Shown in pieces: positions 2,591 through 36,048 of a stretch of 60,025 bases of DNA. Position 1 is the first letter of the stretch, and every line of letters begins with the position of its first letter. The translations under genes and the position numbers were made by a program. The stretch is from an uncultured Gammaproteobacteria bacterium (GTDB taxonomy: Bacteria > Patescibacteriota > Patescibacteriia > UBA1558 > S5-K13). The notes under the pieces are model-generated. The model was not told the origin of the DNA. It ran no database searches and saw nothing but the letters and a program-made list of their open reading frames with translations. The DNA lies in assembly GCA_964639335.1 (NCBI GenBank), contig CAZXCJ010000001.1, positions 1-60,025 on the forward strand, written 5' to 3'.

Positions 2591-2952
2591 TTACGAATAA
2601 TAAAATTTTGAGCTCTTAATCAATCCAATTAACATTTTGTAAATGTTAATTGATTCTTCAAACATCCTTTTAAATTCATTATCCTTTAGATAATTGAGGT
2701 CTTTAGAAATTAAAATTTGACTTTGTAATTCGGAAACTGATCCTAGACTATTATAATAAAAATTAACCTTTTCTTTATAAAATTTTCTATTAAATCCCTC
2801 TGCGATATTTGAAACTACAGAAATAGAACATCTTCTCATTTGGCTTATTAGGTCAAAAACTTCTTCTTTGGGAAAATTTTTAAAGCTAATCTATGAGATT
2901 GCTGCCAAACCCCTAAATCTCTAAAACTTTTTATCTTATTATTTCCATACAT
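2591..2952 (-). pseudogene. four-helix-bundle (23S rRNA IVS protein / Avd-like) gene, frame-disrupted
   Basis: N-terminal piece MYGNNKIKSFRDLGVWQQSHRLALKIF (2851-2952) stops early. The rest, FKNFPKEEVFDLISQMRRCSISVVSNIAEG..., continues in another frame. Confidence 0.6.
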
Positions 2953-3057
2953 ATTTTTTTCCTTTTCTTAATTCTTATTTAAAAAAACAAAAAACCGCTT
3001 ATTGCGACCCCTTTAGTTATCAAATTGTTATACTTGTCCCTACTCCTTACTCCCCCC

Positions 3058-3111
3058 CCTGCCTTGCCGTAGTTCCCCGCTTTTTTAGAAAAGTGGGTGA
3101 ACGTAGGCAGG
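3058..3111 (+). repeat. GC-rich nested-hairpin module (family member without a tRNA-derived tail)
   Basis: Outer arms cctgcct 3058-3064 / aggcagg 3105-3111, gtag...cgta junction, inner hairpin ccccgctttt..aaaagtggg. A G-U pair is possible only on the plus strand. Confidence 0.45.
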
Positions 3112-3118
3112 TTGTTCC

Positions 3119-3511
3119 TTACTTCAAATACTTCTCATATTCTTTTCTTTTCTTATCTTCAGCTCTTAATTGCGGAACTCTATTCAAATAATATTGTATA
3201 ATGGTAATCAGCCAAATTAATAAAAAGCCCCACCACAATATCAAAACAAATCTAATTTGAAAATAGGGAACTCTAAATTTTCTGAAAAGTATAAGAAATA
3301 AACTAAGCAAACCCCCAATAAACAAAAAATTGGTTAATTTAGTATATAAAACTTTTTGATATTTATCTTTGGCCTTTTTGGAAAAAAAATACTTTAAAAA
3401 AATAGCCATTAAAATAAATGCTAGGGAAATCGCCAAAATAATAAAAAAAGTTCCTGGCTTAATGGCCGGGGGATAAGCGTCAAAAAGATATTGAAAACTT
3501 ATAATAGACAT
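3119..3511 (-). CDS. small integral membrane protein
   Basis: Four predicted TM helices; no recognisable motif. Confidence 0.45.
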   Translation of the reverse strand: MSIISFQYLFDAYPPAIKPGTFFIILAISLAFILMAIFLKYFFSKKAKDKYQKVLYTKLTNFLFIGGLLSLFLILFRKFRVPYFQIRFVLILWWGFLLIWLITIIQYYLNRVPQLRAEDKKRKEYEKYLK

Positions 3512-3512
3512 T

Positions 3513-4070
3513 CTACTTCTTAAAAATTAAACCAAAATGATATTGTCCTGCCTCAAATTCTTCCTCCAATTTTAAACCAAATACTTCACACAATTCTTTT
3601 ATTTTTTCTGGATTAACCCTTTTCTTAATGTCTGGTCCCAAAGGTGCGCCAATATTTTTCCAATCAATAATTAAAAGCTTGCCACCAACTTTAATTAATC
3701 TGATAGCTTCTTTAATCATTTCAGCCATATTAGCAGATTGAAAAAGGACATTATTCAAGATTCCTAAATTTAAAGAGCTTTCGGAAATTTTAGTAACTCC
3801 ATAGATTTCTAAATTACTCCAAATTGTGCGGACATTACTAAGGCCCTGATTTTTAGCATGACTTTCAGCTGAAGATAAAACTTGTTTTTGAACATCAACA
3901 GCATAAACCAAGCCCTTGTCTCCAACTATTCTAGCAGCTTGAAAAGTAAAGTAGGCCTTGGGTCCACAACCTAAATCAGCCACCCTATCTCCGTAGCCTA
4001 AACCAATGTGTTTTTCTAAAATTTGTTTAGGATCCAAAAGTTGATTACCTCCAGCCTGTTTCTTAAACAT
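3513..4070 (-). CDS. class I SAM-dependent methyltransferase
   Basis: VADLGCGPKAYF (motif I) and VYAVD (motif II). Confidence 0.8.
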   Translation of the reverse strand: MFKKQAGGNQLLDPKQILEKHIGLGYGDRVADLGCGPKAYFTFQAARIVGDKGLVYAVDVQKQVLSSAESHAKNQGLSNVRTIWSNLEIYGVTKISESSLNLGILNNVLFQSANMAEMIKEAIRLIKVGGKLLIIDWKNIGAPLGPDIKKRVNPEKIKELCEVFGLKLEEEFEAGQYHFGLIFKK

Positions 4071-4212
4071 ATATTTTTGTACATACTTATTGTATAATAA
4101 ATTACAACAGTAAAATTATTATATAATAAGTCCATCTAATTAAATTATAAGATATTTAATAAAAAATCAAGTATATTTTAATTATATTACCTCTTGATTA
4201 AACAATCAACTT

Positions 4213-4836
4213 ATGAACCTTGGTATTTTAATCATTATTATCAGTTTGTTGTCTTATTTGAGTAATCACATTAATAACAAATATTTAAATCATTTATCTA
4301 TTAAATATTTTTATTATTTAGGAATTATCATTCATGAATCTTCTCATGCTTTAATGTGTTTTTCTACAGGTGCAAAAATTATTAAATTTGAAATATTTTC
4401 CAGACAACCAAAAGTAACTCATTATAAATCAAAAATACCTATCTTGGGACAAACCCTAATATCTTTAGCTCCTCTCATAGGAGGATTTGCATTTCTTTGT
4501 TTAATAAATAATTATGTTTTGAAGGGTTGTATTAATATAAATACTCCGACAAATTTAAAAGAATTATTGGCCCTACCTTTTTCCATATTATCGCAAATAA
4601 ATATTTTGGAATGGAAAAGTTGGATTGTAATAATTCTTTCTTTAAATATTGGGGCTATGCTTGGTCCGTCCTTTCAAGATTTAAAAAACATCTGGTGGGT
4701 CTTTATAATTTTGTTTTTTATTAAGTGGCCATTTTTAATAAATACTGGACTAATCATTATTGCTTTAATAATTACTAATATTATTATTCAAATTTCTTTT
4801 ATATTAATCTCTAAAATCATAAAACCAGCTTCTTGA
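4213..4836 (+). CDS. polytopic membrane protein with HExxH motif (putative zinc metallopeptidase)
   Basis: IIHESSHALM sits within or next to a TM helix; multiple TM segments. Confidence 0.45.
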   Translation: MNLGILIIIISLLSYLSNHINNKYLNHLSIKYFYYLGIIIHESSHALMCFSTGAKIIKFEIFSRQPKVTHYKSKIPILGQTLISLAPLIGGFAFLCLINNYVLKGCININTPTNLKELLALPFSILSQINILEWKSWIVIILSLNIGAMLGPSFQDLKNIWWVFIILFFIKWPFLINTGLIIIALIITNIIIQISFILISKIIKPAS

Positions 4837-24990: not shown

Positions 24991-25341
24991 ATGCCTATAA
25001 ATCTAATAATTGCTGGAATTGTATTTGTGTTTTTATTAGTATTTTTAATTATAAAACTAAAAACTCCTTCTCAAGAATATGGAGAGGAGTTAAAAAAACA
25101 AAACCCTAGTATTCCAGACGAAAAAACTCCTCTCGCGCTCCCACTAGAAAAAACTGTGGAAAATAAAAGGACAATCATTATTTTTACTCTTGGGGTGACA
25201 ATTTTAATAGGTGGAATAGCTTATTTTATATTTAAAAATAAAAATGAGGCTACAGGCGATAGTAGCTCCTTTTATTTCCCCTTCTGGTTAGTGGCCTTAA
25301 TTCCTATTTTTGCCAAAAAGAAGAAAAAAAAGCTAATTTAA
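24991..25341 (+). CDS. small membrane protein
   Basis: Three TM helices and a K-rich tail. Confidence 0.4.
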   Translation: MPINLIIAGIVFVFLLVFLIIKLKTPSQEYGEELKKQNPSIPDEKTPLALPLEKTVENKRTIIIFTLGVTILIGGIAYFIFKNKNEATGDSSSFYFPFWLVALIPIFAKKKKKKLI

Positions 25342-25452
25342 ACGAAAAAGAAAAAAACCAAAGTCCATTATAATAATAGTTATCTTATTACTTCTTTTGG
25401 GAATGCTGACGTTTTTTTCTAATGAGATAAATTGTATTTTATTATATAAAAT

Positions 25453-25480
25453 AAAAAATCCTGCTAAACAGGATTTTTTT
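25453..25480. terminator. bidirectional intrinsic terminator
   Basis: aaaaa-atcctg-ctaaa-caggat-tttttt. Confidence 0.65.
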
Positions 25481-25522
25481 ATAACACTCAAATTAGTGGC
25501 AAGCTTTAAACATAAAATCAAA

Positions 25523-26328
25523 CCGAAAGGTGGTCATCTTATACACCTCTACATACTAGACAAAGAAAGACAATGCATACAGCAGAAGAACAGAAAGCTA
25601 TTAAGCTGAGAAAACAACATATGCATTGGGGTAAAATGAAGTTATCTCCATTATATAAAAATATCTATCAAGAAAAGCTTTCTAGTTGGCAATTTCAAAG
25701 AATAATCCAAGATTACAAACTTTATCCTAAACCAGTTAAGAATGCTAGAACACAGGCTAAAAGACAAAGATCATTAAAAAAGAAAAGAATAACTGAATTA
25801 AAGAAGAAAAAACCAATATTAGGTTACTTATTACATTTTGATACCATAGTTATTTATTGGAATGGAATGAAAAGATATATTATTACTATGATAGATGAAT
25901 TTACTAAAATAGCTTTTGCTAGAATGTATAAAAATCATAGTTCTTATTCAGCTCAAGACTTTCTAAATAGAGTTGATTACTTATTAGATAATAAAATTAA
26001 TAATGTTCATTCAGATAATGGATCAGAATTTGGAAAATACTTTAAACAGCTTTGTAAACAATTAAAACTAACTCAATATTATTCTCGAACTAGAACACCT
26101 AAAGATAATCCTTCCATAGAAAGATTTAATAGAACTTTAAAGTATGAATGGTTATTTGATGGTAACTTTAATGAAGACATAGATGTATTTAATAATAATT
26201 TAAAAGACTTCTTAATTGAATATAATTTTGTTAGACCTCATCAAACATTAAACTATTTAACACCTATGCAATTTGCTGTAAAATACAAACAAGTGTCCGA
26301 AAGGTGGTCATCTTATACACGGGGTTGA
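25523..26328 (+). mobile_element. IS481-like (rve/DDE) element remnant bracketed by 24-bp direct repeats
   Basis: ccgaaaggtggtcatcttatacac at 25523-25546 and 26297-26320; I could not find terminal inverted repeats. Confidence 0.55.
25573..26328 (+). CDS. DDE (rve) transposase, IS481-family-like, lacking the N-terminal HTH region
   Basis: HFDT...MIDEFTK...HSDNGSEF...TRTPKDNPSIERFNRTLKYEW; only 251 aa. Confidence 0.8.
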   Translation: MHTAEEQKAIKLRKQHMHWGKMKLSPLYKNIYQEKLSSWQFQRIIQDYKLYPKPVKNARTQAKRQRSLKKKRITELKKKKPILGYLLHFDTIVIYWNGMKRYIITMIDEFTKIAFARMYKNHSSYSAQDFLNRVDYLLDNKINNVHSDNGSEFGKYFKQLCKQLKLTQYYSRTRTPKDNPSIERFNRTLKYEWLFDGNFNEDIDVFNNNLKDFLIEYNFVRPHQTLNYLTPMQFAVKYKQVSERWSSYTRG

Positions 26329-26352
26329 CAAATTCTGTCAGTATGCTATATT
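26325..26352 (+). promoter_or_regulatory. near-consensus outward promoter at the transposase 3' end
   Basis: ttgaca at 26325-26330, 16-nt spacer, tgc-tatatt (extended -10) at 26344-26352. Confidence 0.55.
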
Positions 26353-26358
26353 GAGTAG

Positions 26359-26501
26359 TTATTTTAAAAATCCCTATATTCCTGCATCCACGACAAGCAT
26401 GGGAATTGTCTGCGGAGGCTTGCTCTGGTCATCATTGTAAAATGATCTACTCGAGTAATCCTCGAGATAGTTTTCTTGGGTGCAGTAATGTGGGGGTTTT
26501 T
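26359..26501 (+). ncRNA. candidate structured small RNA of unknown class
   Basis: 8-bp closing helix 26382-26389/26478-26485; three internal hairpins, including atcatt-GTAA-aatgat and ctcgag-taatc-ctcgag; terminal aaaaatccc/gggggttttt. Confidence 0.4.
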
Positions 26502-26544
26502 CTTTAATTTCTAATTCCCAATTTTAAATTTTCAATTTGAATTT

Positions 26545-26646
26545 AACCCCTCACCTTTTAATTTGAAAATTTAATACCTTAATTTTACTATATAATCTTT
26601 TTAAAATAATTTTTTGATATTAGTTTACAAAAAAGGTGATGGGGTT
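26545..26646. repeat. long-range inverted arms aacccctcacctttt / aaaaggtgatggggtt (copy B)
   Basis: Arms at 26545-26559 and 26631-26646. The architecture and the extra T in the 3' arm are the same as at 2030-2132. Confidence 0.5.
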
Positions 26647-26919
26647 AATTTACAATAAACCAATTTTCAATATTTCTCGATTAAAAAACAATTTAGTAAG
26701 ACATTAATAATTGGTTATTGTTATATTGATTATTAAATGTAAATTGAAAATTTCAGATTGATAATTAATCTTGCTATTGACCTTACTTAATAAAAAGACT
26801 ATTATTCTATTAGACTAGTATATTGTATTTATACTAGTTTTTTTAAAAAATAAATTTAGTAAATAGTTTATAGTTTAAATAAACCATTAACTACAAACTA
26901 CTAACTACCAACTAACCTT

Positions 26920-28308
26920 ATGTTTCAAAATATAGAAGAAATTAAACAGGCTATCCAAGTAATTTGCGAAGAAAAAAATATCTCCGTAGATTCTGTAATT
27001 GAAAGCATTGAAGCTGCTCTGGCCGCGGCCTATCGCAAGGATTTTGGTAATAAACTGCAAAACATCCAAATTAAATTTGATTTGGAAACTGGAGATATTA
27101 AGGTCTGGGATGAAAAAATTGTAGTAGAGGACAGAGATTTAGAAAAAGAGGCCGAAGAATATCAGGAAATTAAAGACAATTTAAAAGAGGGAGAAGAAAT
27201 GCCAGAGGATTTTATTAAATTTAACCCTAAAACCGAAATTATGCTTTCCGAAGCAAAAGAAGTTAAGAAAAAAGCCAAATTAGAAGACATTATTAAAATA
27301 GATTTAGAAATTCCTAGCGATTTTGGAAGAATTGCCGCCCAAACAGCCAAACAAGTTATTATCCAAAGAATTAGAGAAGCTGAAAGAGAGACTATTTTCA
27401 GTGAATTTAAGAAAAAAGAAGGTGAAGTTATTAATACAATTGTACAAAGACGCGAAGGTCCAAATGTTATTGTTGATTTAAATAAGGCCCTGGGTATTAT
27501 CCCTCCAGAAGAACAAGTTCGTAATGATCACTATACCCCCGGAGCTAGATTAAGAGTATTAATCTTAAAAGCCGAAGAAACTAATAAGGGCCCAAAAATA
27601 ATTGTCTCTCGAGCTCATCCCGAAGTAGTTAATAAAATATTCAATCTAGAAGTTCCTGAAATCGCCAGCGGAGTTGTAGAAATCAAAGCCATAGCTCGCG
27701 ATCCTGGAGCCAGAACAAAAATTGCTGTTCATAGTAAAGAAGAAAATATTGATCCTATTGGTTCTTGCGTTGGCCAAAAGGGCTCCCGTGTTCAAACCAT
27801 TATTAATGAATTGGGTGGGGAAAAGATAGATATTATTCAGTGGGATAAAGAGCCAACCAATTTTATTAAAAATTCTCTATCTCCAGCTAAAATTTCTAAC
27901 ATTGAAATAAATAAAAAAGAAAATTCCGCCATTGTACAAGTTGAGGAAGATCAAATGTCTTTGGCTATTGGCCGCGGTGGTCAAAATGTAAAATTAGCTG
28001 CTAAATTAACTGGTTGGAAAATAGATATTGAAGGAGCAGAAAACTTTTTAGACAAAAAAGATGTTGAAAAACCTAAAGATTCGTCCGCTAAATTCTCAAC
28101 AAAGTCGGAAGCAAAAGACCAGGAAACTAAAAAAGAAAAAAGCAAAAAATCTAAGAAGCCCAAAACTAAAAAACTAGAAAATAAGGAAATAGAAGTTCAA
28201 AAAGTCAAAGAAGAAAAGACAGAAAAACAAGAGGACAAAGAGATAGAAAAAAAGATAGAAGAAAAATCAAAAAACTCCAAAAAACCCAGAACTAAAAATT
28301 CCAAATAA
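26920..28308 (+). CDS. nusA: transcription termination/antitermination factor NusA with a Lys-rich C-terminal tail
   Basis: NusA N-domain, S1 and KH1/KH2 (GSCVGQKGSRVQ, GRGGQNVKLA); the last 90 aa or so are K/E-rich low complexity. Confidence 0.92.
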   Translation: MFQNIEEIKQAIQVICEEKNISVDSVIESIEAALAAAYRKDFGNKLQNIQIKFDLETGDIKVWDEKIVVEDRDLEKEAEEYQEIKDNLKEGEEMPEDFIKFNPKTEIMLSEAKEVKKKAKLEDIIKIDLEIPSDFGRIAAQTAKQVIIQRIREAERETIFSEFKKKEGEVINTIVQRREGPNVIVDLNKALGIIPPEEQVRNDHYTPGARLRVLILKAEETNKGPKIIVSRAHPEVVNKIFNLEVPEIASGVVEIKAIARDPGARTKIAVHSKEENIDPIGSCVGQKGSRVQTIINELGGEKIDIIQWDKEPTNFIKNSLSPAKISNIEINKKENSAIVQVEEDQMSLAIGRGGQNVKLAAKLTGWKIDIEGAENFLDKKDVEKPKDSSAKFSTKSEAKDQETKKEKSKKSKKPKTKKLENKEIEVQKVKEEKTEKQEDKEIEKKIEEKSKNSKKPRTKNSK

Positions 28309-35306: not shown

Positions 35307-36048
35307 TAATTTCTGGCTGAGCTAATTTTGGAGGGTCTTGAGAAATATTTTCATTAACAGCTTTATTAATAATATATTGGTCTAAAACATTTAACAAAGT
35401 CATTATTAACCAATACAAGGCTAAGCCGCCTGGGAAACTAGCCGCAATAAAAACTGTGATTATGGGCATAAAATACATCATTTGCTTGCTCATGGTCTGA
35501 GCCATACCTGCATTTTTTGGAACTGGAGTAGATTTTTTCTTTTTCATTAAAATCATGCTATGCCAAAATTGAGCTGCCCCTGCTAAAATAGCTAAAACTA
35601 TCTGGGGTTTAGCTAAATCAATAACCCCTAACATTATAGGGTTTAAATATCCAGGGTTGGAAACAAAAGGATAAAGCAAATTAAAATTAGTATCTATTAA
35701 GCCAGTTCTAAAAACTCGGAAAACAGCAATTATAACTGGTAATTGAATTAGAAGAGGCAGACAGGAAGATAAAGGATTAATTTTTTCTCTCTTATACAAG
35801 CTCATCATTTCTTGCCCTAATTTCTCTTTATCGCCCTTATGTTTCTCTTTTAAAGCATCCATTTTGGGCTGTAAATCCTGGAGGGCCTTTTGAGATTTTA
35901 AACCTTTATGAGACAGTGGCCATAAAATTGCTTTAACTACAAGCGTGAGTAATATAATAGATATTCCAATATCTGGAATTAAATTATAAAAAAAGATTAA
36001 TAAATTAAATAAAGGTTGGTATAAAACTGTATTAAATAAATCTCCCAT
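35293..36048 (-). CDS. yidC: membrane protein insertase YidC (short form)
   Basis: Five TM segments; KALQDLQPKMDALKEKHKGDKEKLGQEMMSLYKREKINPLSSCLPLLIQLPV. Confidence 0.88.
   Translation of the reverse strand: MGDLFNTVLYQPLFNLLIFFYNLIPDIGISIILLTLVVKAILWPLSHKGLKSQKALQDLQPKMDALKEKHKGDKEKLGQEMMSLYKREKINPLSSCLPLLIQLPVIIAVFRVFRTGLIDTNFNLLYPFVSNPGYLNPIMLGVIDLAKPQIVLAILAGAAQFWHSMILMKKKKSTPVPKNAGMAQTMSKQMMYFMPIITVFIAASFPGGLALYWLIMTLLNVLDQYIINKAVNENISQDPPKLAQPEIIDSK

Follow-up and report, generated by a model that had tools for sequence, protein, structure and literature searches.

A predicted rod-shaped RNA conserved in one class of Patescibacteria, carried by phages and possibly docking a protein

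Positions 26358-26505 (+ strand) of a 60,025-nucleotide (nt) stretch of DNA from an uncultured bacterium of the Patescibacteriota (assembly GCA_964639335.1, contig CAZXCJ010000001.1; the whole stretch is called the window below) lie between a transposase gene and nusA. We consider this segment to be probably an independent gene for a stable RNA of ~135 nt, shaped as a single rod, which belongs to an uncatalogued family and would act in trans as a docking RNA. An earlier sequence-only reading of the locus had suggested an independent small RNA (sRNA), and this is borne out by a conserved promoter of its own, a terminator-like closing helix, a strand-specific fold and conservation throughout the class. 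To our knowledge, few RNA families are core to a whole bacterial class, the familiar ones being ribosomal RNA (rRNA), transfer RNA (tRNA), RNase P, transfer-messenger RNA (tmRNA), signal recognition particle (SRP) RNA and 6S RNA. The rod RNA is single-copy, has a consensus promoter and has turned up in all genomes sampled from one class of uncultivated, ultra-small bacteria. It is most likely a stand-alone, protein-docking RNA of the housekeeping type.

Fold, promoter and ends of the rod RNA

The + strand folds at ~26367-26500 into one long hairpin of -59.8 kcal/mol (z = -7.4 against shuffles), compared to -36.4 kcal/mol for the - strand. We compared 56 distinct homologues using RNAalifold on a MAFFT alignment that was not fitted to structure. 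The result is a rod made up, in order, of P0, P1, a 10-nt 5' bulge (CGACAAGCAU) facing a single U, P2 and P3, above which stand a usually non-canonical pair, a G·U pair, a G-C pair, one further pair and a tip of variable length. The parts of the predicted gene in the window are as follows.

26325-26330, +: -35 hexamer TTGACA; perfect in front of 51 of 78 distinct homologues; homology with the sister genome G001 runs from 26319
26344-26352, +: extended -10 (TG 26344-26345 and TATATT 26347-26352); from the promoter scan and homologue comparison
26367-26380, +: P0 5' strand, outer closing helix; pairs with 26487-26500; 14 of 14 pairs compensatory in the 56 homologues
26382-26390, +: P1 5' strand CUGCAUCCA; pairs with 26477-26485; 100% paired
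26391-26400, +: 10-nt bulge CGACAAGCAU; invariant in 56 of 56; opposite the single U26476
26401-26410, +: P2 5' strand; pairs with 26466-26475; compensatory changes in 7 of 10 pairs
26411-26426, +: mid-rod 5' strand (P3 and small internal loops), ending at U26426; from the minimum-free-energy fold; P3 covaries
26427-26429, +: 5' side (GGU) of the G·U/G-C module; G26427·U26451 and G26428-C26450
26431-26446, +: variable apical hairpin AUCAUU-GUAA-AAUGAU; from the fold; length and loop vary across homologues
26449-26475, +: 3' strand of the module, P3 and P2; from RNAalifold and alignment pair counts
26476, +: unpaired U facing the bulge, invariant; from the alignment
26477-26485, +: P1 3' strand UGGGUGCAG; from alignment pair counts
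26487-26505, +: P0 3' strand running into the U tract (26497-26505); from the fold; terminator-like

Pairing holds in 92.7% of cells of the rod model, and 27 of its 40 pairs show changes on both sides. The covariation score is 0.596, compared to at most 0.148 for controls in which the partners were slid by 1-3 columns. Among the pairs, G·U (348) far outnumbers A·C (50), and a covariance model gives 108.6 bits to the + strand and 27.2 bits to the - strand. This asymmetry indicates that the structure belongs to an RNA of the + strand.

Two of the helices proposed in the sequence-only reading are real. The 8-base-pair (bp) helix 26382-26389/26478-26485 covaries, A-U being replaced by G-C in 15 of the 56 sequences with zero broken cells. 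In other orders of the class P1 is wholly replaced yet paired (for example CUGCGGGCA/UGUCCGCAG and UCGCGCUCA/UGAGCGCGA), and these classmates have kept the bulge together with two pairs beneath it (C-G and A-U) and one on top of it (G-C). The outer pairing, which had been suggested to double as a terminator, is longer than claimed (14 bp, 26367-26380/26487-26500), and its 3' strand enters the U tract 26497-26505 to give an end like that of an intrinsic terminator. A U tract follows P0 immediately in 33 of the 56 homologues, and the others have a separate terminator hairpin. That reading had also asked whether the helices are conserved in homologous sequences; P0 and P1 are, with compensatory changes.

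The junction of three hairpins drawn inside these helices is not retained, as the bases of its side hairpins sit in the continuous rod. We reject the side hairpins because caagc/gcttg is paired in 47% of homologue cells with zero two-sided changes, and ctcgag/ctcgag in 40% with two-sided changes in 3 of 6 pairs (12 cells). The third, the GUAA hairpin, is present at 26431-26446 and appears in G001 in a compensated form (ACCAUU-GUAA-AAUGGU), but its GNRA loop is no feature of the family: tip loops of other members include UUCG, UCAG, CUAG and GAAA, among others, and the part of the rod past the module (tip stem and loop) measures 4-19 nt.

Conservation is concentrated at two places in the rod. 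P1 and the bulge form, on the 5' strand, the most conserved part, the bulge differing in just three distant members of the family and there by 1-2 nt. Higher up, G26427·U26451 is a G·U pair in 53 of the 56 sequences, G26428-C26450 is invariant and the pair 26426/26452 is non-Watson-Crick in 45. The distance from bulge to module is 24 nt on the 3' strand in 49 of the 56.

The rod RNA is preceded by a near-consensus sigma-70-like promoter with a TG-extended -10. It was found again exactly where it had first been placed (TTGACA, a 16-nt spacer, then TG and TATATT; 26325-26352, + strand), with a score of 11/12 plus the TG, and it ranks top within 25300-27000. The spacing of this promoter predicts a start of the RNA near 26358-26361. 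A perfect TTGACA and a TG-extended -10 are located 24-114 nt (mostly 24-80 nt) 5' of P1 in 51 of the 78 distinct homologues, and the window's transposase is absent at all 51 of these loci.

The rod RNA stretch has a G+C content of 0.39-0.45, compared to 0.15-0.25 in the flanking DNA. As first noted, it contains no conserved open reading frame (ORF); a short ORF from the AUG in CAUGG was considered and rejected, as the encoded peptides vary among homologues. The start of nusA, said to be about 420 nt further on, is at 26920, that is 419 nt after 26501.

Distribution in the class and in phages

The rod RNA is single-copy in its 1.07-Mb, 66-contig genome. Of 61 genomes from the same order, 60 have a homologue recovered by BLAST. 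A covariance model built from the 56 distinct sequences was run on 401 genomes sampled evenly across the phylum and matched 25 of them, all 25 in the window's own class. None of the 376 genomes of other classes gave a match, and no genome of the window's class is among the unmatched genomes listed. The family is therefore class-wide and class-restricted rather than phylum-wide.

A 20-nt core (CTGCRTCCACGACAAGCATG) occurs exactly in 63 GTDB species, which are Patescibacteria by record title or by fold except for two chance matches (Arthrobacter and Myxococcales) in which the 3' half is missing. The titles of the core-bearing records read Komeilibacteria, Magasanikbacteria, Uhrbacteria, Parcubacteria or Patescibacteria group, or are generic or wrong ('bacterium', 'uncultured Gammaproteobacteria'). 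The rod RNA is thus a core, normally single-copy gene of one class, whose records carry the labels Komeili-, Magasanik- and Uhrbacteria.

In two genomes of the same genus, a single promoter is followed by two tandem rod copies. The copies have diverged from each other, and the first has a minimal tip (L004 on G003:C6 and L003 on G004:C76). This arrangement implies processing of a dimeric precursor.

Full-length members of the family are also present on at least three phage contigs of IMG/VR, which we searched with pattern scans for the bulge sequence followed by the covariance model. The best copy (L130, 62.8 bits) lies between a Rad52-like gene and GroES/GroEL, with a ParB-methylase, the small and large terminase subunits and a portal gene further on. 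Another (L132, 54.7 bits) stands directly behind terminase genes, and one more (L147, 53.8 bits) is on a viral contig of 63% G+C DNA whose content is unassigned. Two weaker copies (L153, 36 bits; L170, 23 bits) have ERF, ParB-like, PAPS-reductase-like and exonuclease genes as neighbours. P1, P2 and the rod are compensated independently in the phage copies. Retention of the bulge in them follows from the search itself, all of them having been found through the bulge sequence. No match was found in GenBank phages and plasmids, and further patterns gave chance matches only in IMG/VR.

The phage copies score below all complete cellular copies except one (L114, 40.3 bits), which suggests old residents rather than fresh captures. 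Phages are known to carry trans-acting host RNAs, tRNA and tmRNA among them, and the rod RNA resembles these in that diverged, full-length copies of a core host RNA sit within phage genomes. It differs from them in lacking a tRNA-like domain (ARAGORN), and a genuine tmRNA is encoded elsewhere in the genome. Phage carriage suggests that the rod RNA acts on a central host process worth controlling for a phage. On the L130 contig, positions 2797-4638, just 3' of the rod and a small ORF, encode phage GroES and GroEL (phrog_5725, E = 1.7e-154).

Known RNA families and possible functions

A scan of Rfam 15, at the gathering score and at E <= 10, returned no match at the locus or at six homologous loci, in line with the sequence-only reading, which could not match signatures of SRP, 6S, tmRNA, RNase P or the common riboswitches. 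We found nothing on such a family in the literature, and the rod RNA is outside both Rfam and the literature searched. Several of the classic RNAs are encoded elsewhere in the genome. RNase P RNA (class A) is at C8:2439-2784. A canonical 5S rRNA at C15:734-848 leads us to reject a 5S rRNA without its beta arm. An unusual tmRNA was rejected likewise: Rfam finds a genuine tmRNA of 424 nt next to smpB (C2:41295-41718, - strand), and ARAGORN is blank at the rod locus, where it finds no tRNA-like acceptor or T-arm. ARAGORN also misses the genuine tmRNA, which may have an insertion or an unusual tRNA-like domain.

SRP RNA deserves closer comparison, since 4.5S or small SRP RNA (RF00169) is likewise a rod formed by one hairpin (~100-115 nt), has conserved modules in its internal loops and comes from a single-copy housekeeping gene. 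The conserved module of the rod RNA is however near its base, while that of SRP RNA is at the tip, which in the rod RNA is variable. SRP domain IV (a GNRA tetraloop with symmetric and asymmetric loops) is absent from the rod RNA, which has the basal bulge and the G·U/G-C module instead. RF00169 was found neither at the locus (E <= 10) nor in the whole genome, 61 relatives or 401 phylum genomes, with search controls positive in 12-13 of 14, and searches for 5S, tmRNA and RNase P perform normally on the same genomes. Using E. coli queries, tblastn and phmmer found nothing for Ffh and FtsY in the genome, while the same method recovered SecA (C8:33233-36025), SecY (C11:18546-19781), YidC (window 35350-36018), FtsE and SmpB. 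Among 21 relatives PF00448 had two weak P-loop matches above cut-off, neither of them Ffh or FtsY, and it is absent in 400 of the 401 phylum genomes (seven candidates scored per genome). We reject SRP RNA on these grounds: no RF00169 match, misplaced conserved parts and absent Ffh/FtsY partners. By these searches, the SRP targeting system also appears to be absent from these hosts of ~1-Mb genomes, and apparently from the phylum; our search of the literature on SRP loss in Patescibacteria found no paper stating this absence.

Y RNAs, bound by Ro60/Rsr, pair their ends into a stem in which a conserved bulge near the base serves for recognition, and their distal part varies. The rod RNA shares the paired termini, the basal conserved bulge and the variable distal part. 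Y RNAs are however sporadic and not class-wide core genes, whereas the rod RNA is class-wide, and it has no Rfam Y RNA match.

We propose that the rod RNA would act in trans as the RNA part of a ribonucleoprotein, docking a conserved protein or machine. The invariant bulge, with the equally invariant pairs on either side of it (C-G and A-U beneath, G-C on top), would make up the recognition surface, and the non-canonical pair, G·U and G-C, fixed 24 nt up the rod, a second docking module. The tip and the outer helix would be free to vary, and the closing helix P0, formed by the paired 5' and 3' ends, would also serve as the terminator. A bolder version, put forward tentatively as it is unlikely to be right, has the rod as the RNA subunit of an undescribed core ribonucleoprotein, in its sharpest form a radically reduced counterpart of 6S RNA with a one-sided bubble, docking RNA polymerase through the bulge and the module at the -35 distance; phages would carry their diverged copies in order to manipulate this machine. 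Identification of a partner would make the rod RNA part of a new ribonucleoprotein or, alternatively, a new way of achieving 6S-type control.

Several points weigh against this proposal. Protein docking is an argument built on the anatomy of the RNA and on its analogy with SRP, 6S and Y RNAs; the gene neighbourhood (56 loci) yields no consistent hint at a partner protein, and no partner was found. With an invariant bulge, covariation cannot tell whether it is truly unpaired, and an alternative CAAG/CUUG pairing of the bulge, broken in two distant members, is weakly disfavoured. No obvious sigma-70 promoter lies inside 160 nt in 27 of the 78 homologues. Expression, ends and abundance of the RNA are inferred only from the conservation of promoter and terminator.

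The main specific rival, which we regard by analogy as a rather doubtful candidate, is a functional analogue of 6S RNA (SsrS; RF00013) that would dock RNA polymerase holoenzyme through its one-sided bubble. The bulge would stand for the template strand of an open promoter, P0 and P1 would mimic downstream DNA, and the G·U/G-C module, ~24 bp along the apical arm, would lie at about the distance of a -35 element; a short transcript made from the bulge and P1, beginning 5'-AUGCUUGUCG, would release the enzyme. Like 6S RNA, the rod RNA is a stand-alone rod with a strong promoter, paired ends and an unpaired stretch of the 5' strand between closing and apical arms, and the fixed 24-nt spacing recalls that of -10 and -35. 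The would-be template strand (P1 and bulge) is also the most conserved part, and carriage by phages would suit a takeover of host transcription. Furthermore, 6S RNA is the only classic RNA of which the partner protein is present and the RNA undetected in this genome, 5S, tmRNA and RNase P RNAs having been found and SRP being absent along with its proteins. With RF00013, 6S-like RNAs of 137-197 nt are detected in 36 of the 376 genomes of other classes and in 0 of 25 of this class, a difference that is not statistically decisive. Those RNAs have, however, the canonical large bubble and a 3' hairpin and share no sequence with the rod RNA, which at ~135 nt is at or just under the short end of their lengths and, at E <= 10, has no match to the model at the locus or its six homologues. 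The loop of the rod RNA (10 nt against 1 nt) is not the large two-sided bubble of 6S RNA and offers no non-template strand to sigma region 2. 6S RNAs also conserve shape more than sequence, whereas the sequence of the rod RNA is invariant across the class.

An invariant single-stranded 10-mer on a stable scaffold is also the usual architecture of a seed, and the complement of the bulge starts with AUG. A regulatory sRNA that pairs through the bulge with a conserved messenger RNA (mRNA) or rRNA target is nonetheless improbable. Apart from its own opposite strand, the complement of the bulge 10-mer occurs once in the 1.07-Mb genome, within a coding region of the other strand rather than at a start codon, so an mRNA target was rejected. 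The best duplex of the bulge with the rRNA pieces of the genome reaches -13.2 kcal/mol, compared to a mean of -15.9 kcal/mol for 100 shuffled bulges, of which 93 pair as well or better, and the rod RNA and rRNA have no same-sense 8-mer in common; these tests cover the rRNA except for 16S ~710-1495, which is missing from the assembly. Pairing of the bulge with a 16S helix-11-like sequence (GCUUGUUGGUG) was rejected as no better than that of shuffled bulges. A mimic of 16S helix 44 and the decoding site (CAUGGGA; CUUGGGUGCAG against CUGGGGUGAAG) was rejected too, the similarity being lost in classmates, where P1 covaries freely. On sequence evidence, we find no support for a base-pairing role. 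It is very improbable that the rod RNA acts in cis, as a leader or attenuator, on the nusA-infB operon of this genus. The appeal of that reading comes from the terminator-like 3' end and from the 10 of 56 loci, in the window's family of genomes, at which the RNA lies upstream of nusA in the same orientation. Elsewhere in the class the neighbours are unrelated and vary by lineage, and 30 of 49 loci have a convergent gene next downstream, which argues that the rod RNA is not a leader. In addition, nusA has a promoter-like site of its own (TTGACC-17-TATTAT, 26777-26805), a 238-nt insertion stands between the two in the window, the rimP leader model (RF01770) has no match at the rod RNA, and the phage copies have no nusA nearby. 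Least credible of all is a transcript of an insertion sequence (IS) from an outward promoter, or a mere DNA palindrome or terminator without RNA function. The stop codon of the transposase ORF (25573-26328) does lie inside the -35 hexamer, as the sequence-only reading had pointed out when it raised a link to the IS. The transposase is however single-copy, and 60 of 61 relatives have the RNA and the same promoter beside other neighbours, without the transposase. The check proposed there, to see whether the same RNA follows other copies of the transposase, finds no such copies in this genome and no transposase family among the recurrent neighbours at the 56 rod loci examined. A palindrome is opposed by the G·U asymmetry, the fold energies and the covariance-model scores of the two strands, and a terminator alone would not need an invariant bulge.

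Neighbouring genes and insertions

The window's transposase is of the rve type (251 amino acids), and no transposase family is among the recurrent neighbours of the rod RNA at 56 loci. Similarity to G001 starts at 26319; the right-hand copy of a 24-nt direct repeat ends one base further on. This start of synteny at the promoter and the single copy of the transposase suggest that an IS or its remnant landed just 5' of a pre-existing promoter. Judged from the sequence, the outward promoter at the transposase end is an accident of insertion and belongs to the rod RNA gene, not to the IS.

The repeat (CCGAAAGGTGGTCATCTTATACAC) is perfect and direct, not inverted, and its copies at 25523-25546 and 26297-26320 bracket the transposase ORF. 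The right copy encodes the C-terminus of the transposase, and the RNA promoter supplies the last three codons and the stop. We saw no terminal inverted repeats around the transposase.

The genes next to the rod RNA differ by lineage. Across the 56 loci, nusA is downstream in 10, a nusB-Nudix fusion is upstream in 17, and an Hsp20 gene and a large membrane protein are downstream in ~26-31.

The promoter-like site of nusA begins a block conserved with G001, in which it is just 62 nt from the rod RNA. The window has in between a 238-nt A/T-rich block (26539-26776) that is absent from G001. Long inverted repeats lie at this block, with arms at 26512-26546/26733-26767 and 26531-26559/26631-26659. 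It looks like a small non-coding insertion, similar to a miniature inverted-repeat transposable element, between the RNA gene and the nusA promoter region.

Finally, the rRNA genes of the genome are divided over contig ends (contigs C57, C64, C12 and C15), and the assembly may have broken at an insertion or a repeat within the 16S gene.

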